A stretch of DNA of 53,524 nt from a virus (lineage: Duplodnaviria > Caudoviricetes): positions 1-53,524 of the IMG/VR virus record IMGVR_UViG_3300038365_000209. One strand, written 5' to 3'. The notes beneath the pieces are model-generated. The model did not search any database, was not told the origin of the DNA, and saw only the letters and a list, made by a program, of their open reading frames with translations. Position 1 is the stretch's first letter. Each line of letters begins with the position of its first letter. The translations under genes were made by a program, and so were the position numbers. Below, one piece after another: positions 1 through 53,524 of the stretch.

Positions 1-894
1 ATGAAATGTTGTGAATTAGCAGATAGGCATTCGAGCCTTGCACCTTTGAACTCTTCCAAAAAGATTAAGGTGGCAATATATAAGCGTGTCAGCACGCTCG
101 ATCAGGCCAGAGAGGGATATTCCCTTGATGCACAGGAGCGCGCCCTAAGGGCCTATTGCGCCGATCATAAATATGAAGTGTACGATGTATATGCGGATGA
201 AGGAATCTCCGGGAAAGATATCACACACCGGCCAGAAATGAAACGGCTTTTGGATGATGCAGACGCGGAGGCCTACGATATTATATTGATATGGGCTCTT
301 TCACGTCTGACACGATCGGTTTCCGACCTCTACAATACTTGGGAGTGCATATCTAAACGCGGTATCGGACTTATCAGTTACACGGAGAGTTTTGACACGT
401 CAACCCCCACAGGGCGGGCTATGATGGGACTACTGGGGGTATTTGCCCAGATGGAGCGCGAGATCACCGCCGAGCGGGTGGCCGCCGCGATGGAGGAAAG
501 AGCCATGCGCGGCCTTCGCACCTGCTCTTATATTCTTGGATACGATTCCGTATTGCATGGAGGCCTGAAAGTCAATACAAAAGAGGCAGAGATGGTAAAA
601 GCTATCTATAAACAGTACATACGTCATAAAAGCTTCTCCTTCATTGCAAAATGGAGCAATAAGCAGGGCTACCGTGGAAAGCGTGGATCGAAATTGTCCC
701 CGGAATCTATCCACAAAATACTTACCCGCCCGATTTACTGCGGATACTACACCTTTCACGGACGCCCAATTAAGCCGGCAGTCGGGCAAGAAGTTCCTCC
801 AATTTTAGACAAACGAACATTCAATACGGTCCAGAGGATCATTGAAAGCAACACCTCCGGAAGGACAAGAGAACGTCCCCTTGTATATCTTTGA
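1..894 (+). CDS. Serine recombinase (resolvase + recombinase domains, no Zn-ribbon/coiled coil)
   Basis: YKRVSTLDQ catalytic motif, LSRLTRS, GRAMMGLLGVFAQMERE, ILTRPIYCG; only 297 aa. Confidence 0.9.
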   Translation: MKCCELADRHSSLAPLNSSKKIKVAIYKRVSTLDQAREGYSLDAQERALRAYCADHKYEVYDVYADEGISGKDITHRPEMKRLLDDADAEAYDIILIWALSRLTRSVSDLYNTWECISKRGIGLISYTESFDTSTPTGRAMMGLLGVFAQMEREITAERVAAAMEERAMRGLRTCSYILGYDSVLHGGLKVNTKEAEMVKAIYKQYIRHKSFSFIAKWSNKQGYRGKRGSKLSPESIHKILTRPIYCGYYTFHGRPIKPAVGQEVPPILDKRTFNTVQRIIESNTSGRTRERPLVYL

Positions 895-899
895 GAAAG

Positions 900-930
900 C
901 AAAAAGGCTCCGAATTTTCGGAGCCTTTTT
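900..930. terminator. Bidirectional intrinsic terminator
   Basis: AAAAAGGCTCCGAA-TT-TTCGGAGCCTTTTT perfect hairpin with A/T tracts on both sides. Confidence 0.85.
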
Positions 931-933
931 CGT

Positions 934-1097
934 GTTTTGATCCACGCTCCGCAAGGGAGCAACATAATTTGAATGGATACAACAGCTACAGCTGAAAAAT
1001 ATGATTTCAATCCACGTTCCCTCGCGGGGAACGGCAAAGCAACGACATGGAATATACAGATGTCTACACATTTCGATCCTCGCCCAAAACGGATGCC
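934..1097 (-). CRISPR. Orphan type I-C-like CRISPR mini-array: 3 repeats (two near-complete, one degenerate) and 2 spacers
   Basis: Repeat 1004-1035 reads GCCGTTCCCCGCGAGGGAACGTGGATTGAAAT on - (32 nt, hairpin, ATTGAAAT end); 934-963 GTTGCTCCCTTGCGGAGCGTGGATCAAAAC; 1070-1097 ends GGATCGAAAT; spacers 964-1003 (40 nt) and 1036-1069 (34 nt). Confidence 0.85.
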
Positions 1098-1109
1098 TTT
1101 ATATAATTT

Positions 1110-1137
1110 AGTATATCATGGCTTTCCCTGCTGTCAA
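1110..1137 (-). promoter_or_regulatory. sigmaA promoter driving the mini-array
   Basis: TTGACA (1137-1132), 16 nt, TATACT (1115-1110) with extended TG. Confidence 0.75.
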
Positions 1138-1195
1138 GAACAAAAATGAAGCTCTAGGATAATTGTTCCGAGGGCTTTGCACTTTATGTGTATAT

Positions 1196-1336
1196 CTATA
1201 CTTGCTTCTTATTCTCCTTCTCTTCAATTGCCCTCCTTTCCATCTGTCTTATTTCGTGATAGATAAGTGCCTGATTTCTGGCAATGGTATTAAGGTTCTG
1301 ATTGAGCAACTCCAGCAGTTTTTGTTCTTCTCCCAT
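1196..1336 (-). CDS. 46-aa helical hypothetical protein (not in ORF track)
   Basis: MGEEQKLLELLNQNLNTIARNQALIYHEIRQMERRAIEEKENKKQV*, preceded by AAAGGGG RBS. Confidence 0.6.
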   Translation of the reverse strand: MGEEQKLLELLNQNLNTIARNQALIYHEIRQMERRAIEEKENKKQV

Positions 1337-1415
1337 TTAAAATCGCCCCTTTTTTCTTAGGGTAACAATAGCAGAAAAATATAGCAACAAATTGTGACAT
1401 ATTTTTACTTTGGAC

Positions 1416-1450
1416 AAAAAAGGGGCACCCGGGAGTAGCGGGTGCCCTCT
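1416..1450 (-). terminator. Intrinsic terminator after the 1473-2196 pair
   Basis: GGGCACCCG stem, U-tract on -. Confidence 0.75.
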
Positions 1451-1472
1451 GGTATAGCTAATTTGCATAATT

Positions 1473-1922
1473 TTAAAAATTGATCTCACCTCTAAAAGCT
1501 GCTCCTAAAACCGCAACGATAATAGAGCATACAATTGGGATCCATAATTGCTTGCTTTTCCAAATCGTTTCGCGCTCTTTCTTTATTACTCTGGCATCTG
1601 CAACAAGGTCGCTAACTTTATCTCCGAGCTTATCCAGCTTATCCTCAAGTTTATCTATCTTTGTATCCATTGATTTAAGCAATTCGAGCATTTCGCTATT
1701 AGTCATATCTAGTTCCTCCCACTTAAGCTCATCTTTCAAGGTGTTGGAACATCCTGCAATATATCCTAGTTTAAAATCTTCCGATGCGCCCATCAATTCA
1801 ATTTCTGTCTCATGCCTATGATATGCTAAAGCGGCCATATTAATGAAAAAAGAATCTTCATACGAAATCGAAACGCTACTAATGCTATCTATATTTTCTT
1901 GTACTTTTTTATTTCTTTCCAT
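1473..1922 (-). CDS. Hypothetical protein with coiled coil and C-terminal TM helix
   Basis: KIDKLEDKLDKLGDKV heptads; LWIPIVCSIIVAVLGAAF; AT-rich. Confidence 0.7.
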   Translation of the reverse strand: MERNKKVQENIDSISSVSISYEDSFFINMAALAYHRHETEIELMGASEDFKLGYIAGCSNTLKDELKWEELDMTNSEMLELLKSMDTKIDKLEDKLDKLGDKVSDLVADARVIKKERETIWKSKQLWIPIVCSIIVAVLGAAFRGEINF

Positions 1923-2196
1923 TTTTTTCGCCTTTTTTCAAATTGGCGGAAGTAGTTACTTCAAGGTTTAACTCTTTTATAGGGCCGTATGTAGCCTCAT
2001 ATCTTTCAAGCTGAATTTGTAGCATCTTTTCTAGTTGTCTTGCAAGAGATGGGCTTAAAATTACATGATCCGATTTTACGGTCAAAGAAGATCCGTTATT
2101 GGGCTCGTGAGGTATAAGCATTTTAAAAGTTATGCAACAATCATTTTGGGACATCGCTATTCCAATGCTATTCGCATAAATCGAATTTTCTTCCAT
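1909..2196 (-). CDS. DUF3467-like small protein
   Basis: IYANSIGIAMSQNDCCITF ... VILSPSLARQLEKML...YEATYGPI pattern; GGAGAG RBS. Confidence 0.6.
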   Translation of the reverse strand: MEENSIYANSIGIAMSQNDCCITFKMLIPHEPNNGSSLTVKSDHVILSPSLARQLEKMLQIQLERYEATYGPIKELNLEVTTSANLKKGEKNGKK

Positions 2197-2283
2197 AGCA
2201 TGTTTCTCTCCTTCTTACCTCTTTCTGTAATATTATAATAGCATTGTCGAATGGAAATACAATATATTTTAACGAATTTAACA

Positions 2284-2326
2284 AAATAAAAAGGGCCTCG
2301 GAGCGCAAACCGCATCCGAGGCCCTT
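2284..2326 (-). terminator. Terminator at end of lysis operon
   Basis: AAGGGCCTCGGA stem, U-rich tail on -. Confidence 0.75.
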
Positions 2327-2354
2327 ATACTTTGTGCAAATCCGCCGATGGCTG

Positions 2355-2552
2355 TTAAGCCTTGTTCGCCGCGTCCACAAGCCCTTCACCGACTATGTAC
2401 GCCACGACAGAGCCGAGCGAGAGAATCAGGCCGCTGATCTGCGTGGTGTCCGTGCCGGGCTGAAACAGCGTGATGATACCAGCTACGAGGCCGGCGACTG
2501 CCAGCCAGAGCTTCCGAGAAGTAAGTTTGCGTTTCCAATCGATTTTTTCCAT
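2355..2552 (-). CDS. Holin
   Basis: IDWKRKLTSRKLWLAV, two TM segments, YIVGEGLVDA; next to amidase. Confidence 0.85.
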   Translation of the reverse strand: MEKIDWKRKLTSRKLWLAVAGLVAGIITLFQPGTDTTQISGLILSLGSVVAYIVGEGLVDAANKA

Positions 2553-2574
2553 AATATAAATCCTTTCTACCGGG

Positions 2575-2880
2575 TCAACCGGCAATCTTAAATATCCACG
2601 CCAATATTGCCGTTGCGATCCCCGCCCCGATCGCGCCGATTGCTGCCGCTACCAGCTTATCCCACCACTTACCGGGGCGGGCAGATATGGCCTTAACGTC
2701 GGCCTTAATCTCTTTTACGTCGCCGTCCAGCCCGTCTACTTTCTGATCAACCCGCGCCATTGCCGCCGTAAGGCCACGGATATCCTTAATATCTGCTTCC
2801 ACCCCATCAATCCGATGGTGCGCCGATTTCGCGCTGTTGAGCGCGTCCGAGGCCATCTGTGCCACCTCTGCCATATCCAT
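2575..2880 (-). CDS. XhlA-like lysis membrane protein
   Basis: SAKSAHHRIDGVE motif, coiled coil, C-terminal TM; start moved to ATG 2880 after GGAGG. Confidence 0.7.
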   Translation of the reverse strand: MDMAEVAQMASDALNSAKSAHHRIDGVEADIKDIRGLTAAMARVDQKVDGLDGDVKEIKADVKAISARPGKWWDKLVAAAIGAIGAGIATAILAWIFKIAG

Positions 2881-2893
2881 CAATAGCTGCCTC

Positions 2894-3712
2894 CTATTGC
2901 ACGTTAAAATTACACTGCGCGGTCTGCCCGGCAGCGGATACCACGATATGAGCGTACCGCGCCGGAGGCGGCAGGGCGGTAATATCAACCAGCCAGCCGC
3001 GGCCTTTCGGGTCGAGACGGGGATCGGACTTGCTGATAACATCCGATCCGACCGTCGTAACCGTCGGCTTATCCTTGCAGCGGATCAGGACGGTATAGCG
3101 CTCTCCTATAGCCATATCCTTGCTGTGAGTGTCCAGAGATAAGCCCGCGATCTGCGGCGGAGCTGCAGCATATGTAGGCTTGTACGCAATCCCGGCATAT
3201 GCACAGATCCCGCGCGCGATAGCCTGGCCAGCTTTCTGCGCGTCAAACCGGCGCATATCCTCGGCGTTGTCGATGAATCCGGCCTCGGCCAGCACAGCGG
3301 GCATATTGCTCTCTCGGATCACCGCCAAGTAGTCCCGCCCATCGTCGCCCTTGCGGGATTTTACGCCTCGATCAGCATATCCCAGCTTGACAAGCTCGGC
3401 CTGGATACGCTCTGCCAGCGTACGGGATTTGCCGCCCGCGATGCTGCACCAGGTTTCCGCGCCGTGCCCGCCTCCAGAATTAAGATGGACGCTGACAAAT
3501 AAATCAGCGCCCCATCTGTTGGCCTTGGGACCGCGTGTGTCAAGAGGGATATCTACATCAGATGTCCGGGTACGGCTAACGCTCATGCCGCAGCGCGTCA
3601 GCTCGGCAGCCAGCACATTGCCGATCTTGAGCGTCAAATCCTTTTCGCGGAATCCTTGGGAGCACGCCCCCGGCTGCGCGCCGCCGTGTCCCTCGTCAAT
3701 CCAGATTTTCAT
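2894..3712 (-). CDS. Endolysin, N-acetylmuramoyl-L-alanine amidase (Amidase_3)
   Basis: KIWIDEGHGG, EKDLTL, FVSVHLNS, AVLAEAGFIDN; start moved to ATG 3712. Confidence 0.92.
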   Translation of the reverse strand: MKIWIDEGHGGAQPGACSQGFREKDLTLKIGNVLAAELTRCGMSVSRTRTSDVDIPLDTRGPKANRWGADLFVSVHLNSGGGHGAETWCSIAGGKSRTLAERIQAELVKLGYADRGVKSRKGDDGRDYLAVIRESNMPAVLAEAGFIDNAEDMRRFDAQKAGQAIARGICAYAGIAYKPTYAAAPPQIAGLSLDTHSKDMAIGERYTVLIRCKDKPTVTTVGSDVISKSDPRLDPKGRGWLVDITALPPPARYAHIVVSAAGQTAQCNFNVQ

Positions 3713-3843
3713 GCACCCACCCCCAGCGCCTGATGCACCATATCCTTGAGATTGGATAGGGCCGGTACCTTGTCCTCGGTGTATCGTTCCGCGCGGATCA
3801 GCCCGACCCACACAATCACAAGCCCCGATGTTTCCGTGAACAT
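3709..3843 (-). CDS. 44-aa small tail-associated protein (XkdX/CD1375-like)
   Basis: MFTETSGLVIVWVGLIRAERYTEDKVPALSNLKDMVHQALGVGA*, translationally coupled on both sides. Confidence 0.6.
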   Translation of the reverse strand: MFTETSGLVIVWVGLIRAERYTEDKVPALSNLKDMVHQALGVGA

Positions 3844-4265
3844 TACGCATTACCTCCCGATACCAATATTGATAGCTCCGCGATCGCATCGGCCTGCGCC
3901 GCCTGTGTCGCCGAGAGCTGTGCGGCCTGCTGCTCCTGATAGGTGAGCTGCGCCAGCGTAACGATCAGCCGATCCTCCGTGACTGCCGGATCGGTGCCTG
4001 TCGCCGGCGTGACCACAACGGGCCGCAGGGCGAGCTCCGTGCGGATATTATAATTGTCATGAACGTACTGCTGATCCCCGTCGATCAGCGTCAGCTTAGA
4101 CGTTTTGGTGGTGTCCGCCGTCAGGGTGTCCAGCGCGTCCATCGTGATGCCGCCCTTAGCAATCTGGATTTCCAGAGCATCACGGTGTGCTCCTTGCGCA
4201 ATAATTTGATCGCCCTTGACGCATATCGCGTCAAGCGTGGTGCCGTCCTGAAATTTTATCTGCAT
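3843..4265 (-). CDS. Tail fibre-associated hypothetical protein
   Basis: AGGAGG RBS; C-terminal QADAIAELSIL typical of proteins preceding XkdX-like genes. Confidence 0.6.
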   Translation of the reverse strand: MQIKFQDGTTLDAICVKGDQIIAQGAHRDALEIQIAKGGITMDALDTLTADTTKTSKLTLIDGDQQYVHDNYNIRTELALRPVVVTPATGTDPAVTEDRLIVTLAQLTYQEQQAAQLSATQAAQADAIAELSILVSGGNA

Positions 4266-4276
4266 GTATATACCTC

Positions 4277-4924
4277 CTACGTTGATGATATAATTACTTC
4301 CGTGATTGGCTTCCCTGCGATCCTGATGCCTCCGGAAACCCAAGTCGCGTCCATAGATGATTGCCAGCCGGAATCACCGGTACCATGAAGAGATGTCTCC
4401 ATTTTGAGCCTTAGCTTAGTCAAAACGATGTCACTGGTAGCAGATTTTACGATGTGTTGTGTCCAAGGGTCTTCACTGGTAAACTCGCCGCGAGAATATA
4501 ATACTTCATAGTCGCCATTATTTACTGCGAGCGAAAGGCCGACGTAGCCATACACGCTTGATTTATGCCAACTATACTCGATGGTGATATCGGCGTCAAA
4601 AATATTCTGGCCAGCCAGGATCAGGATTCCCGGGTCAAATTGTATGTCTGTATAGATTGCAGGGTCAAGCCAATAATCCGCCTCGTTCGAAGTATATAAT
4701 TTCCCGCTGCCATCCAAGTTCCATCTAGCTATTTCTTCAACATTTCCGCTGCTAGTATCTCTCGGTATAACAACGACTTTTTGTCCACTGAAAATCTTCC
4801 GGTTGACACCGCCGGAATCCCTCGCCCACGCCTCTTTCAGCTTGCGGTTCACTGCATCCTGCGCCGCCCACAACTCTTTGAACTTCCGGTTGACGGCATC
4901 TTTCGCGGCCAACAATTCAGGCAT
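4277..4924 (-). CDS. Putative tail fibre/receptor-binding protein
   Basis: Three N-terminal VNRK repeats followed by an AT-richer beta-type C-terminal domain; tail position. Confidence 0.55.
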   Translation of the reverse strand: MPELLAAKDAVNRKFKELWAAQDAVNRKLKEAWARDSGGVNRKIFSGQKVVVIPRDTSSGNVEEIARWNLDGSGKLYTSNEADYWLDPAIYTDIQFDPGILILAGQNIFDADITIEYSWHKSSVYGYVGLSLAVNNGDYEVLYSRGEFTSEDPWTQHIVKSATSDIVLTKLRLKMETSLHGTGDSGWQSSMDATWVSGGIRIAGKPITEVIISST

Positions 4925-5534
4925 CGTACACACCCCAGAGCTTACCGGGAGCAAGCGTCGAGGTAGGGGCCGCCGTGGATAGGGTCAATGTGGACTCTAT
5001 CCGCCAATCTCCCCATGTATCATTAATTTTTGTCCTTACAGCTCTTGCAGCATTGCTATAATCTGTGTACACCTGTTTGATTACGCCGCCCGTGGCGGGA
5101 GCAAATCCACTTCCATCGAATTTTGAAACGTCGAGAAAACCGTGATTCGGAAATCCAGTAGGAAAGTTTGTTGCATTTATTGCAAATTCGTGGGTTTCTG
5201 TAACGACAGAATTTAAGTCAATAGGGTTCTGTCCTGGGTAGACATAATTTGTTTTCCCTAAAAAATCAGTATTGGCTACCGAACCCTGCACTGCCCCGTT
5301 GATCTTGTCCCTCTCCCCCGCCTGAAGGTGGACGGTGGCGTCGGAGGTGTGAGAGTTGACTTCCTCCCCAATCTCGTTGAATACGCCCGCCTGCGCCTTG
5401 TCTCCTGCCTGCGAATACTCGGTGACGTCCTGAAACGAAAATGTTCCGTCGCCGTTATCAATCTGCTGATATTTCCGTAGCGTCCCGGCTCCGCTGGCTG
5501 GGATTGCGTCCTTGTAATCTGTCCGTAAACTCAA
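4917..5534 (-). CDS. Minor tail/fibre protein
   Basis: LRTDYKD ... SFQDVTEY N-terminus, knob-like RTKINDTWGDW. Confidence 0.6.
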   Translation of the reverse strand: MSLRTDYKDAIPASGAGTLRKYQQIDNGDGTFSFQDVTEYSQAGDKAQAGVFNEIGEEVNSHTSDATVHLQAGERDKINGAVQGSVANTDFLGKTNYVYPGQNPIDLNSVVTETHEFAINATNFPTGFPNHGFLDVSKFDGSGFAPATGGVIKQVYTDYSNAARAVRTKINDTWGDWRIESTLTLSTAAPTSTLAPGKLWGVYDA

Positions 5535-5941
5535 AATTCATCAACTCCTGTTCCCATCGTAAAGGCCATTGTCGGCAATAGATTCCACTGCCCCACCATC
5601 GCGTCGTGTAAGCGGAGAATGTTCCCCTCGATGATGTTTAGTTGTTCGGCATTCCACCCCGGAGCCCCCAAGGAATATCTTTGCATTTCCTGATCCTGCG
5701 GCGGCTTGTAGAGGCTATCTTCCAGCTTCTTCACGTTGTCCACGATGTTGTTGAGGAACGTGTCTGCCGGGAACCCGTCAATCGTGAAATCGCCCATGGA
5801 GATAAGCGGAAAGTCGGCGTACATCTGCGCCGAATAGTCCTTAATCCACTGGATGTTCCCTTTTATCCGGTTGTAGTCCGGGTCGAGGTTGAAATAATCG
5901 TTTTCCGTCCAGTTCGTTTTTGGCGTCACCCAGTCAGCCAT
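5531..5941 (-). CDS. Minor tail/baseplate protein
   Basis: WVTPKTNWT...DYNRIKGNI motif common in Clostridial siphophage tails. Confidence 0.65.
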   Translation of the reverse strand: MADWVTPKTNWTENDYFNLDPDYNRIKGNIQWIKDYSAQMYADFPLISMGDFTIDGFPADTFLNNIVDNVKKLEDSLYKPPQDQEMQRYSLGAPGWNAEQLNIIEGNILRLHDAMVGQWNLLPTMAFTMGTGVDEF

Positions 5942-8540
5942 TCATTTTCACCGCCTTTACGCTCCCGGAGAGCGCCCCATTAAATTCAATCTTATGATCC
6001 ATAATCCTCACAGGGAAAAGCGCCTCAAACTGGCTCTCCATGTAGGCGAGATCATGCGCGTCGATTTCCGGATTTCCGCGGTACGTCGTAGTCAGGAAAT
6101 TCCGCTTGCTGAAATAGTCCGCAATCCATATCGCCGTGTTCTGCGCGTTCGTGAGGTCTGTAATCAGCGGATTTTGCAGGGCTGGCTTATCTTCGCCCTG
6201 CGGGTTTAACTGCTTCACGACGCTTACAGAAGCCGCAGTAAGCACCTTGCCGGTGATGGAGAGCGTGGCCGCGCCCGTTCCGGTCAGCGTGAGCACGGAA
6301 TAGTAGGTATAGTGTGTCTGCGAGACGATGGTTCCCGCGCTCAAAGAGGCTGCTATCTCCGTAGCCGCGTCGTGGGACACGTTCAGGGTAATGTCGCCGC
6401 CAAGGGTAATGTCCGAATGGTAAAGCTCCGTCACGTCGGCGGCAGGAACGTAGGAATAGCAATTGACCGTAACCGTCTTGACCTGAGAGCTCTTTTCCAC
6501 GGTCGGCTTACTGGTCGCTGTGGAAAAATCTATGTTCATGTCGTTCACGCGCCCGGAACCGATTTGAGCTATCATGGCACGGCGCGTACCCCGGCACCAC
6601 TTGTGAATTTCAATCTCGATTCGATCCGTCTTATCGACAGAATGTTCCACGATGTACTTTACCGCTGTATTTCCCGTTACGGAAACGCGGTCAATCTCTG
6701 CCCCGGCCAGCTTATAGACAACATCGAATTCCGCCGCGCACTCCCCATCCACGTTGTCAAACATGATCGGAATCTGAAATGCGGAATAAGGGAAGGAGTA
6801 GGTCCAAAAGAAAACCGGATAGGTGGAAAAGGCGCCGTCCGCGTCGCAGATTTTGTCCGAAACAAAGCCCATACGAATGTATGGCCCGGCCGCCGGGAGA
6901 AGGATTTTTGCTCCGGCCGCTTTCCACGAATCCGGAAGGAAGTCCGCATACTTCGCGGTCGGCAAATTCTCGTCATTGTAGGCGCTCTCGGAACTGCTGT
7001 ACGCCATGTGTCCGTTGTCGCCGACCTGAATCGTCGGGTCCAGCGCTATTTCCAAGGTAATATACCCGCGACGGTCGGTATAAAGGATGCACTGCCCTGC
7101 ATTGGCGATAATCTGCAAGCACTCGCGGTGCGTGACAATGGGGAGCGCGGCTTTCGTGTAAATATCTTTCAGGTGGCCGTCAATGGAGTAATGCTCGACG
7201 CCCGCATCGGTTAAAACTTCTTCTGCGAGGTCGTAGAGGGAAATTTTATTGTCATGGGGGGCATACGATTTATCCACAATGCTATTTAGGCACATGAACG
7301 GCTTGATCGTTCCATCGGCAAACAAGGATTGATAATCATAGGCAATAGTCTCGTCTAAAGGATTGAAAAGCGTTACGCTGATAAAGTAAGCTCCGGCTGG
7401 CGTTGTAAATGTTTGCCCATTTTGAATCGCCCCAATAGAAGAAAGAAAATTTCTGCTGGAATCATATGTCCTGATGACTTCTTGAAAATCGGATTCCGTG
7501 TCGCAGTAATATGTGGTGGAAGGTTTGACAGCAACTAATTCAGAAAGTCGGAGCCTTGATGTAATATTGGCTTTTCCCCCATCTGATGGCTGATATTGTC
7601 CAGATTCCCATGCGCTGAAATTATTGTCGATCAGGTTTCTATTTTCTCGGTAAAGCCCATACCGAAACATTCCGGTTAAATTCGTAAGGGCATCGACCGC
7701 TGAAAAAGAAGCCTGTGCGTCCGCCGCGATGGGCGTGCTCTCCGATACTGTGCTGTCACCCTGCACCCATTCGATAGAACCGTCGTCGAGTTCGTATCCG
7801 TATTCCATATCAAGCGGCTGCTTCGCTTCCAGGTAGGAATAAATTCCGGTCGGATTCAGGGGATTGTAGGCTTGATCCCTGTTGTCAATCGTGAAGGTGA
7901 ATTTCTTCTGCGTGAGGGACAGCGACAGGAAGTCGATGCTGCTCTCAAAAGAAGTCTTGATAAGCTGCCGGTTCTGGAAAACGACCGATTGCCCGAATTG
8001 CAGCCGGTTCAGCCGGACGCGGCGGCCGGCGGCCGGAGCCCTCACAAATTTAATCGTGATGGAGGTAACGTCCTGCAAGCGGTCGGGCATGATATAAAGC
8101 TCTGAATCCGGATTGTAGGTCGTGCCGTTTACTTTGATTTCCTGCGGCACCTGTCCTTCCGGGAAGGTGAGCGTCAAACCGAAAATGTCCTGCGGGTCGG
8201 TGAAGGAAACCGTGATGGTCGGGTTCGCGGCAAAGGTGTTATCCGTGAGGTTTGACACTTCCGAGGAAACAAAGCCGTCGTAATTGTAGGGACCAGTCGC
8301 CGGAAGGATAAGCTGCTTCCCATCCGCGCGCCAGTAATCCCGCTCGAATGTGGCATAGTCTCGGTCCGGCAGGATATCATCGTTCAGGTTCAGGTTGGCA
8401 TAGGCCGTATGACCATTATCCGTAAATTCCGCCTGCTGGCCGGCGAGAAGATTGAAAACGCCGTAAGACACCCGCACATAGGAACGATTGCGGAGAGGTC
8501 TCCGCATCTGCTCTTTGTATGCTGCACTTACGGTTTGCAT
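5934..8540 (-). CDS. Large tail tip/baseplate hub protein with internal duplication
   Basis: 868 aa downstream of tape measure; THRECLQIIANAG, YRGNPEID. Confidence 0.75.
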   Translation of the reverse strand: MQTVSAAYKEQMRRPLRNRSYVRVSYGVFNLLAGQQAEFTDNGHTAYANLNLNDDILPDRDYATFERDYWRADGKQLILPATGPYNYDGFVSSEVSNLTDNTFAANPTITVSFTDPQDIFGLTLTFPEGQVPQEIKVNGTTYNPDSELYIMPDRLQDVTSITIKFVRAPAAGRRVRLNRLQFGQSVVFQNRQLIKTSFESSIDFLSLSLTQKKFTFTIDNRDQAYNPLNPTGIYSYLEAKQPLDMEYGYELDDGSIEWVQGDSTVSESTPIAADAQASFSAVDALTNLTGMFRYGLYRENRNLIDNNFSAWESGQYQPSDGGKANITSRLRLSELVAVKPSTTYYCDTESDFQEVIRTYDSSRNFLSSIGAIQNGQTFTTPAGAYFISVTLFNPLDETIAYDYQSLFADGTIKPFMCLNSIVDKSYAPHDNKISLYDLAEEVLTDAGVEHYSIDGHLKDIYTKAALPIVTHRECLQIIANAGQCILYTDRRGYITLEIALDPTIQVGDNGHMAYSSSESAYNDENLPTAKYADFLPDSWKAAGAKILLPAAGPYIRMGFVSDKICDADGAFSTYPVFFWTYSFPYSAFQIPIMFDNVDGECAAEFDVVYKLAGAEIDRVSVTGNTAVKYIVEHSVDKTDRIEIEIHKWCRGTRRAMIAQIGSGRVNDMNIDFSTATSKPTVEKSSQVKTVTVNCYSYVPAADVTELYHSDITLGGDITLNVSHDAATEIAASLSAGTIVSQTHYTYYSVLTLTGTGAATLSITGKVLTAASVSVVKQLNPQGEDKPALQNPLITDLTNAQNTAIWIADYFSKRNFLTTTYRGNPEIDAHDLAYMESQFEALFPVRIMDHKIEFNGALSGSVKAVKMNG

Positions 8541-8561
8541 CCTTCTCGCCCCTTTTTCATG

Positions 8562-8945
8562 TCAGACAAGTCCATAGTCGATGACGTTGCATTTGCAACT
8601 GGTATAGATCGTTGGAAGCCCGGTGGCTTTGCTGATCTTTGCGGGCGTCGCGGTCCGATCCCCTGGGTACATCCAAATCGTAATCCAATCGTTGTTTACC
8701 ATATCAGGGAATGTGACATAAACCTTGAATTTTGCAAATTCCTGCAGCATCTTGGACCATGTGGCGGCGGTCAGGCGCGGCCAGAATAGATTGTCGAGCT
8801 TGTACTGATCTCGCCCTACCTTCTGCCCGATCACTTCGTTGTTTGCGTTGCGGCCGGCCGTTACCGTCGTGGCGACGATAAAATTCGGGGATCGCCCAGG
8901 AGCGGGAAAAGCCTTTCCGTTTACGATGATAAATGCGTGGGCCGT
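8562..8945 (-). CDS. Distal tail-like protein; apparent start codon is ACG
   Basis: AGGAGGTGA RBS followed by in-frame ACG GCC CAC GCA TTT ATC..., open to the ORF-track stop at 8562. Confidence 0.7.
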   Translation of the reverse strand, partial: TAHAFIIVNGKAFPAPGRSPNFIVATTVTAGRNANNEVIGQKVGRDQYKLDNLFWPRLTAATWSKMLQEFAKFKVYVTFPDMVNNDWITIWMYPGDRTATPAKISKATGLPTIYTSCKCNVIDYGLV

Positions 8946-8956
8946 AATCTCACCTC

Positions 8957-9664
8957 CTATGCCGTTTGTGCCGAATCAGGAGTTGCCAATATTGTCAGTT
9001 CCATCAGAGACAAAAGCGCTTTATCGTCTTTATAATATTTGTAGACGTTCCCATCCACCGACCAGTAATAATCCAAGAAAAAGCTCTGTATCTTCTTCTT
9101 GCAGGCGGCTATGCCATCTAAAATAATGGAATTATAAAGTGCAAGCTGATCTTTGCAAAGGTCAAAGTCATCAGTTTCTTCCATTGAACCTTTGAAAGAT
9201 TCATATACAAATGCTTTAATCACACCAGTTTCCGATTCTTTCGGCTCCCACCTATCAAGATTAAGAACGGGAACATCCGCCTCTTTTCTTTCGCGAGGCA
9301 CATAAAATGTATTGATTATTTCCTTTATTCCGCTTTCATCAACTGGCCTTATTTCAATAAGTTTGCGGTTCCCATGTTCGGCCACAAGTCTCTTTACTGT
9401 TTTGACGGCCTCGTCGAACGTAATTCTAAACCATTCGCCTGAAGAGCGATATTTTTTTAGTGCGTTGTGGACGAGCTTTTCAACCTTGTGCGGATTAGCA
9501 ATTAATTCCGTAAAATATTCATTTGAGATTAAAACAGGAGTTCCTATTTGAATCTCGCGTTTCCTGGTTTCTCCCCTGTGAGATATGCCAATTTTGCAAT
9601 ATTCCCCGGCTTGCATTACATAAACGCTTTTGTTTTCATAGGACCATTTTTTCATCACGCACAC
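8957..9664 (-). CDS. GIY-YIG/T5orf172-like nuclease-domain protein
   Basis: VYVMQ...CKIGIS...EIQIGTP...VEKLVHNALKKYRSSGEWFRI. Confidence 0.8.
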   Translation of the reverse strand: MCVMKKWSYENKSVYVMQAGEYCKIGISHRGETRKREIQIGTPVLISNEYFTELIANPHKVEKLVHNALKKYRSSGEWFRITFDEAVKTVKRLVAEHGNRKLIEIRPVDESGIKEIINTFYVPRERKEADVPVLNLDRWEPKESETGVIKAFVYESFKGSMEETDDFDLCKDQLALYNSIILDGIAACKKKIQSFFLDYYWSVDGNVYKYYKDDKALLSLMELTILATPDSAQTA

Positions 9665-9781
9665 GCCTTTCTGCGCTGCCTTATATATAAAAATTTGGAG
9701 AAACGGTAAGGCTTCCGCTTTCGCCCCGTCGAGCTATCTCCAAATCTCTACCGGGTTGAATCGCTGTGGAGTATGAGCCTG

Positions 9782-9920
9782 AAAATAAATAAAGCCCGAC
9801 AAACCGAATCAATCGGTCTATCGGGCTCAAATGGCCTCATTCCGCAGTATTATACTTTCAGTAGTTGTTTCTCGTTTTTCCTTATACCGTAAGTATAGCA
9901 TAGGGATGCGGAAAATTCAA
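9782..9920 (-). promoter_or_regulatory. Late control unit A: promoter + tandem boxes + terminator
   Basis: TTGAAT-17-TATACT (9920-9892); TGAGGCC-att-TGAGCCC (9839-9823) entering GCCCGA stem with TTTATTTATTTT tail. Confidence 0.65.
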
Positions 9921-9975
9921 TACAGGTTTGACTTTTTAATTTGTGGTGATAATATAAAGAAAAAGGAGGAATTCT

Positions 9976-10491
9976 ATGCGGAAAATATTTTTTGCCATGA
10001 TCGTGGCTATGACAGTAACGCTATTTTTTGGATGTCAGACACAGACCGTACAAACCAAGCAGGCTAAGCCGGATGAGCTTATCCCAATCGTAAATATAGA
10101 AAATTTAACAGAGCGAGAGTCCGCTTTTAATGAAGCAAAGCCATATACAAACGATGGGCTTATAAAAGGCATCTCTGCGGTCACAAAGAAAGTCAGCGTT
10201 TTTACTTCTGCGGATAATAGTTCCTTGTTGCTAATCGCTTTGCAATTTGACAAAGATACACCGCAAGAGGATGTTTCTGCATTTAAAGAAGCAATAAACA
10301 GTCTTTCTGATGCTGTCGTAAACAGCGGATATAAAATGTGTCAATTCTTTTTAATTTCAGACGGAGATATTAGAATGCAAACCGCTCCGTTATCTGTTTC
10401 AAGCGGGGGACTCGAAACAGCAAGCGCGTTTTTCAATTACTCTGGAAAGAGCGAAGTTGATACCCAATATGCAAACGCCGTAAATCAATAG
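9976..10491 (+). CDS. Lipoprotein moron (possible superinfection exclusion)
   Basis: Signal peptide ending LFFG-C; own promoter (TTGACT..TAATAT), AGGAGG RBS and terminator 10499-10530; opposite strand to tail genes. Confidence 0.7.
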   Translation: MRKIFFAMIVAMTVTLFFGCQTQTVQTKQAKPDELIPIVNIENLTERESAFNEAKPYTNDGLIKGISAVTKKVSVFTSADNSSLLLIALQFDKDTPQEDVSAFKEAINSLSDAVVNSGYKMCQFFLISDGDIRMQTAPLSVSSGGLETASAFFNYSGKSEVDTQYANAVNQ

Positions 10492-10676
10492 TAAGCGCAA
10501 AGCAGCCGGATATTTCGCCGGCTGCTTTTTATACAAAACTATTGTAACTTTGTTGAAAAATATAGAATCCATGCTATAATTGGAATTGCAAAGGGTCACG
10601 GGCGGTTCCTCCATTCCGAAGTGAAAGCTCTTTCTACGCTTGGGAGCATATAGCTCCTGGAATGGAGGTGAAGGGC

Positions 10677-10754
10677 ATGGAAATCCTCTATGCTGCTATT
10701 TTCCTTGTCGTAGCTACGGGATACATACTCGTGCTCGGCAAGGCAAAAAAATAA
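10677..10754 (+). CDS. Type I toxin, 25-aa hydrophobic peptide (not in ORF track)
   Basis: MEILYAAIFLVVATGYILVLGKAKK*; GGAGG RBS paired by upstream CCTCCATTCC; promoter TTGAAA-16-TATAAT 10553-10580. Confidence 0.8.
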   Translation: MEILYAAIFLVVATGYILVLGKAKK

Positions 10755-10833
10755 CCGCCCCCCAGCCAAGGTTAGCGGTTATTTATCGCGCTTTGGGCTG
10801 TCTGCTTCGGCAGATGGCCCTTTGCTTTTTCTA
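10745..10833 (-). ncRNA. Putative antisense antitoxin RNA
   Basis: TTGACA (10867-10862)-17-TACAAT (10844-10839) facing the toxin 3' end; AAATAACCGC/GCGGTTATTT hairpin plus U-run terminates it; ends approximate. Confidence 0.7.
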
Positions 10834-10925
10834 TCCCCATTGTATGCGTGGCCCATCGGTTTGTCAAGAGGATATTGGAAGTAATTCTTAGAAATGCTTC
10901 ATATTTGGATTCCTGACGATCTTCT

Positions 10926-28633: not shown

Positions 28634-29035
28634 ATGAAAGGAAGTATTGGTATGATGAAATCAGAGCTTGAAGCGCTCACCATGAGGAGCGGCGAAGAAC
28701 TGCCATGGATGGCCTTTGAGGCCGCAGAGCGCCACTACATGAGCGACAACGTGTATCACGAGCGCAACAACGCGCACGGCATAGATGAAACCAAGCAGGA
28801 GTTTGCACGTCGGGTATTTGGCGGCAAGGTCAACACGCTACGCACGTTTGCGCTGAAGCTGGTGCAGGAAGCAATCCGTGAGAATGAGTATTGCCTGCGC
28901 GGTTGCAGAGTGCACGAAGATAAGGCTGAAATGGACCGCATGAGCCGTCTCATCGCCGAGCAGACCGTATGGGAATGCTGCGGAGGGCACACAGAGTACA
29001 ACATGCAAAAGTACGTCATGGCCCGGATAAAATGA
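28634..29035 (+). CDS. Hypothetical protein (first gene of + strand island)
   Basis: ORF downstream of promoter; no recognised family. Confidence 0.65.
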   Translation: MKGSIGMMKSELEALTMRSGEELPWMAFEAAERHYMSDNVYHERNNAHGIDETKQEFARRVFGGKVNTLRTFALKLVQEAIRENEYCLRGCRVHEDKAEMDRMSRLIAEQTVWECCGGHTEYNMQKYVMARIK

Positions 29036-29116
29036 TCTTGGCCGCGCCTGGCGGGCCCCGCGCAGTGGCCGCCACCATATCACGCCGGCGGGCGGAAAAC
29101 GCAGAAAGGAACGATT

Positions 29117-29419
29117 ATGAGCAAGTATTATATCTATTATCCACGCGATTTCGCGAACGAGTATTCCTTGATCCGCGTCGATGATGCGGCGCAAGAGTCC
29201 CGGCTACTTGGCTGGTATGAGCGGCACAGCACGGAAGAAAATGATCTGCACCGTATCAGTGTGCAGGCGATGCGGGGGAAAATTTCCAATGAGCGCTACG
29301 CCAGGAAGCATGATCAAGCTTTCAGCGGCTACGGCGATACGAAGCCGGAGACGGTGGACGAATTTCTATTCCCGTGGTGGGCAGACAGGCAAGACGAAAA
29401 AGAAGGGGCCGCCTGCTGA
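29117..29419 (+). CDS. Hypothetical protein
   Basis: GAAAGGA RBS; YYIYYPRDFANEY N-terminus. Confidence 0.7.
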   Translation: MSKYYIYYPRDFANEYSLIRVDDAAQESRLLGWYERHSTEENDLHRISVQAMRGKISNERYARKHDQAFSGYGDTKPETVDEFLFPWWADRQDEKEGAAC

Positions 29420-51913: not shown

Positions 51914-53524
51914 ATGATTAACGCCGTAATTTACGCCCGCTTTTCCAGTGATATGCAGCGGGAAGAAAGCATCGATGCGCAGGTCAGGGCCTGCAAATAC
52001 TACGCTCAAAATTTTGGGTACAATATCATTCATATTTATGCTGACAAGGCGAAGTCCGGAAGATACATTCGCAAGCGCGATCAATTTCAGAAAATGATTT
52101 TAGACAGCGCAGAAGGACTATTTTCTGCCGTGCTGGTACATAAACTCGACCGTTTCGGCCGCAGTGGAATGGATACGCTGGAAAATCAGAAAATTCTCGA
52201 GCAAAACGGCGTTGAACTGATTAGCGTGAAAGAGCGTCTGGATAAAACGCCGCAAGGGAAGCTGATGCTCTATGTGATTGTCGGCATGAACGAATTTTAT
52301 TCAGCAAATCTCGCCCAAGAGACGATGAAGGGCCTGAAAGAAAACGCCTACAAATGCCTCTATACCGGCGGCATTCCTCCTCTCGGCTATGATGTGAACC
52401 CGGACAAGACCTTCCGCATCAACGAAACAGAGGCGGAAGCAGTAAGACTGATTTTCAAGATGTATGCTGATGGATGCGGATATACGGAAATCCTCCGCGC
52501 ATTATCCGCAGGCGGCTTTAGAACTAAGCGCGGACATGCCTTTGGTTCAAACAGCCTTCACGACCTTCTCACAAATGAAAAATATGCGGGAGTTTATGTT
52601 TTCAATAAGTCGGCGCCCCGTAACGCTCATGGGAAAATGAACCGGCACAAATATAAAAGCGAAGATGAAATCATCAGAATCCCCGGAGGAATACCGGAAA
52701 TTGTTTCTCCCGAGGTTTGGAAGGAGGTGCAAAAGAGATTGAAGGAAAATCAACATAGGGCTGCCAGAAACAAGGCAAAGATTGACTATCTTCTGAGTGG
52801 AAAGATTTTTTGCGGCCTGTGCGGCTCCTCAATGACCGGGGAAGTCAAATATGCGAATGGACATACTTACGCCTATTATCGCTGTGGCAAAGGGCAGCGG
52901 ACGAAAGAATGCACACAGAGAGAAATTCCAAAGGATTTAGTGGAACAAGCCGTAGTTGAACAGATAAACAAAAATATTTTTAGTCCAAAAAGTATTGATG
53001 CGATATGCCACAGAATTTATGCTAGCTTTCAGGAGGATGACGGAAAAGATAAGCTGGCCGCCCTAAAGCGTGAGATCGAAGGAATTGATCGGAAGATTGG
53101 AAATGTGACTCGAGCAATAGCCGAAGGAGTTACCGCCCCGGAACTGAAAGACACATTGGAGGACCTTTCCAGCCAAAAGAAGAAACTTCAAATTAAACTT
53201 TATGAGATGGAATCCGTGCCGGGTGCGAAGAAAAAAACGCTCGAGGAAATTAAAGCAGAGTTTTCGGAAGGCGCGGATTTTGGCAAGCTTCCGTTTGAGC
53301 AGCAAAAAAGAATCATTCAGAAATTTGTCAATCGTGTGATTGTGTACCCGGGCGCGAACGGAGGAGGCTATCGAATACGGGTCATACTTTCTACCGATGA
53401 ATCAGCTGTAGATGAAGCACTTAGTGTTCTGGATATGGAGGGCAACGAGTCCTCTCCGCCACTCAAATCCAAAACAAGATTCTGTTCCTTCCGAACGGAA
53501 TTATGCTTTTGGATTTTTTTTTGA
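51914..53524 (+). CDS. Large serine integrase
   Basis: YARFSS, KLDRFGR, recombinase domain, LLSGKIFCGLCG...YYRC Zn ribbon, coiled coil. Confidence 0.95.
   Translation: MINAVIYARFSSDMQREESIDAQVRACKYYAQNFGYNIIHIYADKAKSGRYIRKRDQFQKMILDSAEGLFSAVLVHKLDRFGRSGMDTLENQKILEQNGVELISVKERLDKTPQGKLMLYVIVGMNEFYSANLAQETMKGLKENAYKCLYTGGIPPLGYDVNPDKTFRINETEAEAVRLIFKMYADGCGYTEILRALSAGGFRTKRGHAFGSNSLHDLLTNEKYAGVYVFNKSAPRNAHGKMNRHKYKSEDEIIRIPGGIPEIVSPEVWKEVQKRLKENQHRAARNKAKIDYLLSGKIFCGLCGSSMTGEVKYANGHTYAYYRCGKGQRTKECTQREIPKDLVEQAVVEQINKNIFSPKSIDAICHRIYASFQEDDGKDKLAALKREIEGIDRKIGNVTRAIAEGVTAPELKDTLEDLSSQKKKLQIKLYEMESVPGAKKKTLEEIKAEFSEGADFGKLPFEQQKRIIQKFVNRVIVYPGANGGGYRIRVILSTDESAVDEALSVLDMEGNESSPPLKSKTRFCSFRTELCFWIFF
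53426..53475. other. Candidate att site inside integrase 3' end
   Basis: Imperfect inverted arms GTTCTGGATATGGAGGGC / GCCACTCAAATCCAAAAC spanning 50 bp. Confidence 0.45.

Follow-up and report, generated by a model that had tools for sequence, protein, structure and literature searches.

A cas-less type I-C-like mini-array in a temperate phage, and its probable role as an RNA anti-CRISPR against the host

The IMG/VR virus record IMGVR_UViG_3300038365_000209 (Duplodnaviria; Caudoviricetes), which was analysed over all of its 53,524 nucleotides (nt) and is referred to here as the window (a 53.5-kb record of 50% G+C), carries a miniature CRISPR array at positions 1137-896 of the minus strand. The array is cas-less and type I-C-like, and consists of a promoter, three repeat-like units (R1, R2 and R3), two spacers (S1 and S2) and a bidirectional terminator. 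We propose, with a probability of roughly 0.7, that it specifies phage-encoded regulatory RNAs resembling CRISPR RNAs (crRNAs), of the kind recently described as Cracrs, which would act as an RNA anti-CRISPR against the type I-C system of the host. In this scheme S2, which matches its site in part, probably guides Cascade to the -35 box of the predicted cas3 promoter of the host.

Anatomy of the mini-array

The elements of the array are as follows.

1137-1110, minus strand: promoter, with TTGACA (1137-1132), a 16-nt spacer, TG (1118-1117, giving an extended -10 element, TGaTATACT, 1118-1110) and TATACT (1115-1110)
1101-1070, minus strand: R1 (psiR1), a degenerate first repeat that is repeat-like at its 3' end alone, GGATCGAAAT, and has no hairpin
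1069-1036, minus strand: S1, a spacer of 34 nt
1035-1004, minus strand: R2, a repeat of 32 nt, GCCGTTCCCCGCGAGGGAACGTGGATTGAAAT, with a 7-bp hairpin (-10.8 kcal/mol)
1003-964, minus strand: S2 (psiS2), a spacer-like unit of 40 nt when R3 is taken as 30 nt
963-934, minus strand: R3, a third repeat-like unit of 30 nt, GTTGCTCCCTTGCGGAGCGTGGATCAAAAC, with a 5-bp hairpin, GCTCC/GGAGC (-8.1 kcal/mol)
896-930, minus strand: intrinsic terminator, with a 13-pair stem at 901-930 (arms 901-914 and 917-930)

An earlier, sequence-only reading of this stretch had listed these elements, and each is present on the minus strand; its description of three differing repeats, two of which keep their hairpins, likewise holds for R2 and R3. 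The promoter scores 11/12 and is the sole promoter-like site within window positions 600-1600, and transcription would be predicted to start at ~1104-1102. The last 11 nt of R1, AGGATCGAAAT, agree at 9/11 positions with the 5' handle of the host crRNAs, TGGATTGAAAT (the host repeat is described below), and the R3 hairpin is followed by a degenerate handle, GGATCAAAAC. The array has kept the R1 handle, the whole of R2 and the R3 hairpin, and is degenerate in the R1 hairpin and the R3 handle; the kept parts appear to be those that two functional RNAs would need, and the decayed parts those that would be dispensable. The 3' ends of the three repeats are spaced 66 and 70 nt apart. An A-run and a T-run border the terminator stem at its two ends; the terminator is thus usable on both strands, and is common to the array and to the converging serine-recombinase gene (1-894).

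The two spacers differ in length. S1, at 34 nt, has the commonest natural length (141/215 host spacers), and S2, at 40 nt, is longer than every one of 770 natural spacers measured (range 31-38 nt); if R3 is forced to 32 nt, S2 is 38 nt instead. The locus departs from a canonical type I-C array in that the repeats are non-uniform, S2 lies outside the 31-38 nt range and cas genes, as the sequence-only reading had also stated, are absent from the window, where tblastn of seven host Cas proteins gave E values of at least 0.33.

Folding of the whole transcript returned a long-range pairing between R2 and R3 (z -5.3), which we do not take to be informative, because palindromic repeats pair in this way in any array. 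An Rfam scan of window positions 1-3000 in E-value mode gave sub-threshold chance matches alone, mostly at or overlapping the terminator hairpin. Within the recombinase open reading frame (ORF), on the plus strand and so opposite to the array, a 14-nt stretch, GCGTGGATCGAAAT, at 668-694 resembles the 3' end of the I-C repeat, and 26-nt arms of this stretch and R3 are 77% complementary. Five occurrences of the 12-nt repeat-end motif (up to 2 mismatches) lie in the window outside the array, the site at 668-694 included, so that the resemblance of this site may be due to chance.

The host type I-C system and its spacer against the phage

The core of R2, with any 4-nt loop, occurs at 26 loci in the species-genome collection, mostly in long arrays whose record titles name Blautia, Roseburia, Hungatella, Enterocloster, Extibacter, Lientehia and other Lachnospiraceae-type organisms; R2 is identical at 30/32 positions to this Lachnospiraceae-type repeat, GTCGTTCCCC-loop-GGGAACGTGGATTGAAAT. 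A search of the metagenome collection with a longer form of the repeat returned nine loci, all labelled fermentation metagenome (L086-L094), in which a 33-nt repeat, GTCGTTCCCCGCGAGGGGAACGTGGATTGAAAT, is present in 225 copies, all preceded by GT. These host arrays hold 215 spacers of 32-36 nt, 211 of them unique. R2 matches this repeat at 31/33 positions, the differences being T2>C and one G absent from the 3' arm, and its loop (GCGA) and 11-nt handle are identical to those of the host. As the repeat so closely matched occurs 225 times in nine metagenome loci, the array is not a chance resemblance, and its earlier characterization as a self-contained, cas-less mini-array of type I-C stands.

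One of the nine loci, L092, carries a complete cas operon upstream of, and adjoining, the host repeat, with the following genes.

2774-5239: cas3
5308-6045: cas5
5940-8009: cas8c
8006-8875: cas7
8865-9530: cas4
9458-10558: cas1
10563-10862: cas2

NCBIfam models for type I-C proteins matched above their curated cut-offs (Cas5c, 247 bits; Cas8c, 325; Cas7/Csd2, 347; Cas1c, 493). The sequence-only reading had proposed a check of the host for a type I-C cas locus with matching repeats, and such a compatible host, as read from these genes and repeats, exists for the array.

Further features of the host loci concern the repeat itself. The trailing ends of host arrays in L090 (~860-1000) and L091 (~2090-2230) contain variant (loop TCGC) and degenerate repeats, which points to diversity of repeat variants within the same community. 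On L094, a metagenome contig of 1.15 kb, one exact host repeat (1094-1126) stands directly upstream of a divergent gene, read by eye as a putative XRE-type helix-turn-helix (HTH) regulator; this may be the start of an array, or else a solitary repeat or mini-array belonging to another mobile element. In L092 (~2683-2750), shortly before the ribosome-binding site of cas3, two halves resembling the host repeat, GTCGGTTTCCCGCCG and CGGCGGGGCGGATTCACAT, lie ~30 nt apart and may be a vestige of an upstream array, comparable to the terminal degenerate repeat that abuts cas3 in Blautia sp. MSJ-19. The score of this stretch is not above that of shuffled sequence, being equalled or exceeded by 13/200 shuffles.

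One of the 211 unique host spacers, in locus L086, matches the window at 34/34 positions (E 5e-15), the next best match being 16 nt.

29108-29075, minus strand: protospacer of the L086 spacer, with a TTC protospacer adjacent motif (PAM) at 29111-29109, within an ORF (28838-29194) that has no PHROG match

TTC is the accepted type I-C PAM. A perfect spacer with this PAM indicates that the host organism targets the phage, and provides a motive for counter-defence; it also validates the strand and PAM convention that we applied to S2. Among the matches listed for 372 unique spacers of Lachnospiraceae and IMG/VR arrays against the window, exact identity extended over 15 nt at most, and no alignment was longer than 18 nt (2 mismatches).

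Spacer S2, the predicted cas3 promoter and competing explanations

Type I Cascades flip out every sixth base, and both strands of L092 were scanned for sites where TTC precedes a match that begins with the first spacer position, every sixth position being left free. S2 has a PAM-anchored run of 15 in this locus (spacer CATATTTTTCAGCTG, host CATATTTTTCAACTG): its positions 1-15 (window 1003-989) agree with L092 2635-2621 at 14/15, 11 of them contiguous, with the sole mismatch at position 12 and the TTC at L092 2636-2638 in plus-strand coordinates. Beyond this site, S2 positions 16-40 are unmatched (5/25 identical). Between cas3 and a divergent gene lie 502 nt with one strong promoter-like site (11/12; TTGAAA at 2624-2629, a 17-nt spacer and TATAAT at 2647-2652), the other four sites scoring 9/12, and the stretch that would pair with S2 covers the predicted -35 box, TTGAAA. 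Of 20,000 shuffled versions of S2, 7 attained a PAM-anchored run of 12 somewhere in L092, which was the maximum, runs of 13 or more being absent; the 583 natural spacers gave runs of at most 10. The significance of the match lies in its being anchored at position 1 beside a PAM, a criterion taken from a published model and not chosen afterwards. In that model, as given in the available text of Liu et al. (bioRxiv 10.1101/2024.10.29.618823), regulatory crRNA-like RNAs combine a PAM with a seed of at least 9 bp on a cas promoter and no pairing beyond it, such that the effector binds without cutting. The sequence-only reading had remarked that the 40-nt spacer could be regulatory, and the placement of its seed on the predicted -35 box of cas3 bears this out. 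Its broader suggestion, an RNA module that either guides or decoys the host Cascade, survives in part: the S2 match favours a guide, targeting of competitors has no support so far, as no phage protospacer was found for either spacer, and a third mechanism, a guide to the cas3 promoter, is preferred here.

Under the proposed mechanism, the array would be transcribed from its own strong promoter, and host Cas5, the processing enzyme of type I-C systems according to the portions of PMC10651486 available, would cut 3' of the R2 and R3 hairpins, releasing an RNA in which the 40-nt psiS2 is preceded by an exact copy of the host 5' handle and followed by the R3 hairpin. Host Cascade loaded with this RNA would locate the TTC PAM on the host chromosome and pair with ~15 nt that span the promoter's -35 box upstream of cas3, the gene with which the operon begins. 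With the remaining 25 nt unpaired, Cas3 would not be licensed to cut and the bound Cascade would instead block transcription. The cas operon could thereby be shut down while Cas proteins are simultaneously diverted from immune crRNAs, and a phage or prophage that is perfectly targeted by a host spacer would be protected, allowing both infection and stable lysogeny. The length of psiS2 equals the commonest spacer length plus 6 nt, which may correspond to one Cas7 step.

Contigs from four DNA runs were compared over window positions 500-1700, and the array is identical in a run of 2014 (X2) and in a run of 2024 from another study (X3). A third run, X9 (2025), contains a variant of the phage that is ~95% identical, in which S1, R2 and S2 positions 1-15 are unchanged. 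In the terminator of this variant, 903 A>G is accompanied by 928 T>C, positions that are mutually paired in the stem, and the changes are compensatory in that the base pair is kept. The other changes within 896-1137 fall at 945 (beside the R3 hairpin), 986 (S2 position 18, outside the seed), 1084 (the non-handle part of R1) and 1129 (the promoter spacer); the numbers of changes are too small for a statistical test. Runs X3 and X9 also contain short contigs that match R2 plus one extra base, that is, the host repeat.

Relatives of the phage were sought in IMG/VR through several of its genes. None of 21 loci with a related recombinase (51-63% identity) has an I-C motif between -100 and +900 nt of the gene end, although in 5 of these loci the sequence ends within 400 nt of the gene. 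Neither the neighbouring 149-aa ORF nor the 868-aa tail protein has relatives in IMG/VR, and four lysin-related loci have no I-C repeat with a hairpin; the closest of the latter (89% amino-acid identity) diverges from the window, and its contig stops ~0.7 kb past the lysin. An exact 20-mer across the junction of the R2 handle and the S2 seed has no match in IMG/VR.

Several points weigh against the interpretation of the array as a guide to the cas3 promoter. A match of 11 nt in a locus of 11 kb (L092) is unremarkable under plain blastn (E 0.54), and S1 also has an internal 11-nt match elsewhere in this locus. The host cas3 promoter is a prediction, and L092, which bears the cas operon, and L086, which bears the spacer against the phage, are different contigs, tied by an identical repeat and the same assembly. 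None of the 15 sequencing runs listed for the stretch is an RNA run. The array was found in no other IMG/VR phage, which limits the comparative support to variants of the same phage. No target of S1 was found in any search, and its best PAM-anchored run in L092 is 4; further, since R1 lacks a hairpin, an S1 RNA could not have its 5' end generated by Cas5. L092, whose 11 kb are part of the host genome, has no second copy of the target seed and no element that resembles the host regulatory RNA CreR and has this seed (48 candidate handles; best run 8, in coding sequence), although a CreR may lie elsewhere in the genome; for this reason the array RNA is not established as a mimic of a host regulator, as the definition of the Cracr class would have it. 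The last point concerns a second phage element, a solitary I-C repeat in a Lientehia hominis prophage (L048, ~4821-4852, minus strand) that has a promoter and a terminator of its own, together with 15 nt resembling a spacer. It occupies the same slot as the array, between a lysin gene (4936-5952) and a converging serine-recombinase gene (3909-4772). No TTC-anchored target of this element was found in its own I-C locus or in its own genome, where 2 matches with 2 mismatches compare with 1 in the control. The proposed mechanism does not extend to it, and it looks more like the solitary RNA anti-CRISPRs (Racrs) discussed below.

In a scenario that we regard as tentative and rather improbable as a whole, the guide against the cas3 -35 box would not be a copy of CreR, which the host seems to lack, and may have arisen de novo, for example from a captured self-spacer trimmed to seed-only pairing; it would repress a CRISPR system that is not autoregulated; the 40-nt psiS may build a distinct, longer Cascade kept for repression; and S1 may direct Cascade to a further target in the host that is unrelated to CRISPR, for instance another defence locus.

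Competition between phages, in which the spacers would guide host Cascade and Cas3 against a competing phage or plasmid and so exclude superinfection, is unlikely for the array as a whole, and could hold for S1 alone, alongside repression of cas3 by S2. The commonest natural length of S1 and its conservation in the X9 variant would accord with such a role, and viral mini-arrays of one or two spacers directed at related viruses are described as established in the accessible text of PMC11656645. A match to a competitor was nevertheless not found for either spacer, in searches that did not take in the metagenome collection. There is no protospacer in the window, as had been noted from the sequence, nor any second match of S1 or S2 there at up to 10 substitutions; searches of GenBank phages and plasmids by blastn remained at chance level (best E 0.5 and 2); and the exact first 20 nt of S1 and of S2, with no mismatch tolerated, have 0 matches each in IMG/VR. 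In 401 sampled Lachnospiraceae genomes, searched with S1 plus R1 and promoter and with terminator plus R3 and S2 (two candidates scored per genome), the matches were short and at chance level, and none spanned a spacer. PAM-anchored seeds of the spacers lie within the range of shuffles both in the phage itself and in 294 kb of Lachnospiraceae and IMG/VR I-C loci, and S1 has no PAM-anchored target in the other host loci. Moreover, the mini-arrays of PMC11656645, as far as its available text describes them, have repeats identical to those of the host, whereas all three repeats here differ from the host's and from each other, and the length of S2 exceeds that of all natural spacers measured.

Slightly less likely again is a pure decoy, in which the R2 and R3 hairpins would sequester Cas5 and Cas7, the spacers would be filler and the match of S2 to the promoter accidental. 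Promoter-proximal repeat mimics of phages do inhibit CRISPR, and a type I-C example, RacrIC1, is validated in the portions of PMC10651486 available; R2 and R3 have kept their hairpins, and sequestration, being also part of the Cracr model as set out in the available text of bioRxiv 10.1101/2024.10.29.618823, may add to the main effect. A decoy would, however, have no need of an exact host handle joined directly to a promoter-matching seed, and a PAM-anchored match of 14/15 at the cas3 -35 box was reached by 0/20,000 shuffles and 0/583 natural spacers; the Racrs described in the same portions of PMC10651486 are also solitary repeats and not repeat-spacer-repeat units. Finally, that the array is an inert, decaying fragment of a host array acquired by the phage is very improbable: its degenerate R1 and R3, its absence from other IMG/VR phages and the 0/21 related-recombinase loci with an I-C motif downstream would be expected of a remnant, but the array has an 11/12 promoter (extended -10) and a terminator of its own, the same array sequence recurs in another run after ten years, the X9 variant shows a compensatory terminator change, the decay of the array spares exactly the parts needed for two crRNA-like RNAs, and S2 matches the predicted cas3 promoter.

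Phage setting and relation to known systems

According to family searches, the phage is temperate and the array has the lysis cassette on one side and the recombinases on the other. The left end of the window encodes a resolvase/recombinase (1-894), followed by a DUF3467 protein, a holin-like protein and an Amidase_3 lysin; tail, head (major head protein) and terminase genes lie further along, and the right end encodes an HTH regulator, an ImmA-like protease and a large serine integrase that extends past the window edge. The ORF of this integrase (51914-53524) is truncated by the right end, and a frame-1 ORF from base 1 (1-894) includes another resolvase domain, which is complete; the two may be recombinases in tandem, and circular permutation of the record, or a cut inside this region, is possible. 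Small ORFs that adjoin RNA anti-CRISPRs often encode protein anti-CRISPRs, according to the available text of PMC10651486. Directly upstream of the array promoter, a 46-aa ORF (1196-1336, minus strand) has no family match, and indels of the X9 variant at 1188-1192 fall just outside it.

Viral mini-CRISPR arrays reportedly serve in inter-virus conflict, as Faure and Medvedeva are each said to have described in 2019. Those in the accessible text of PMC11656645 resemble the present array in having one or two spacers, no cas genes and a need for a host effector. They differ in that their repeats are identical to the host's and their spacers match related viruses, whereas the repeats here diverge from the host repeat, R2 by 2 positions and R1 and R3 by far more. 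Racrs, including RacrIC1 (Camara-Wilpert et al., 2023; PMC10651486), are likewise mimics of host repeats that phages carry just downstream of a promoter and without cas genes, and R2 and R3 are predicted to be stem-loops of the nuclease-bindable kind found there. In the available portions of that report, however, a Racr is a solitary repeat that acts by sequestration without pairing of a spacer to a target, whereas the array has three repeat-like units, two spacers and a PAM-anchored target for S2. An IMG/VR viral contig (L028, ~3620-3651) also bears a solitary I-C repeat of full length, GTCGTTCCCCACGCGGGAACGTGGATTGAAAT, with no other repeat in its vicinity.

The array shares with the CreR and CreA RNAs of hosts the succession of a degenerate repeat, a spacer partly complementary to a cas promoter and a second degenerate repeat, with Cascade as a repressor rather than a nuclease (bioRxiv 10.1101/2023.03.10.532045; 10.1101/2023.03.03.530964, in their available text). 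As presented in the accessible parts of Liu et al. and Shmakov et al., however, CreR and CreA are encoded within the CRISPR-cas locus of the host and function in autoregulation or in the control of toxins, whereas the array resides on a phage that is targeted by the same host.

More broadly, the perfect host spacer, the near-copy of the host repeat on the phage and the putative guide to the cas3 promoter form an arms-race triangle, drawn by sequence alone from uncultured fermentation communities. RNAs of the Cracr kind are compact natural guides for CRISPRi, and explain how temperate phages persist in hosts with self-targeting spacers. The present findings suggest that such RNAs may be found by matching the seeds of phage mini-arrays to host cas promoters, even where a host CreR is lacking, which would widen the known set. 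The case is also directly testable for type I-C, as the Cracr experiments in the available text of Liu et al. (bioRxiv 10.1101/2024.10.29.618823) cover types V-A, I-E and I-F, type I-C being represented by a bioinformatic example alone.

The best reading of the array is that it is of the Cracr type, directed at type I-C, and distinguished by the lack of a visible host CreR in L092 and by an unexplained first guide, S1. As far as the accessible text of the same preprint describes them, Cracrs are crRNA-like anti-CRISPR RNAs of phages, with 219 candidates, 64 of which lie in 30 arrays, and two-spacer I-C arrays make up 9/30 of these arrays. The candidates were collected by BLAST with host CreR and CreA RNAs and are described as their mimics; the present array differs in that its match is to the promoter itself. 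It differs also from the I-F Cracrs studied, which have shorter spacers in the portions of the preprint available, in that its psiS, at 40 nt, is above any natural spacer measured. As in Cracr arrays, the units are phage-encoded and lie outside the cas locus, the repeat-like units are degenerate, several spacer-like units share one transcription unit, and a terminator is present. The PAM and the at least 9 PAM-proximal matches to a cas promoter, with the rest of the spacer unpaired, are found for S2 and not for S1 (best run 4). Like the repeats of Cracrs, R2 resembles that of the system which the array would target, at 31/33 positions, and its handle and loop are identical to those of the host.

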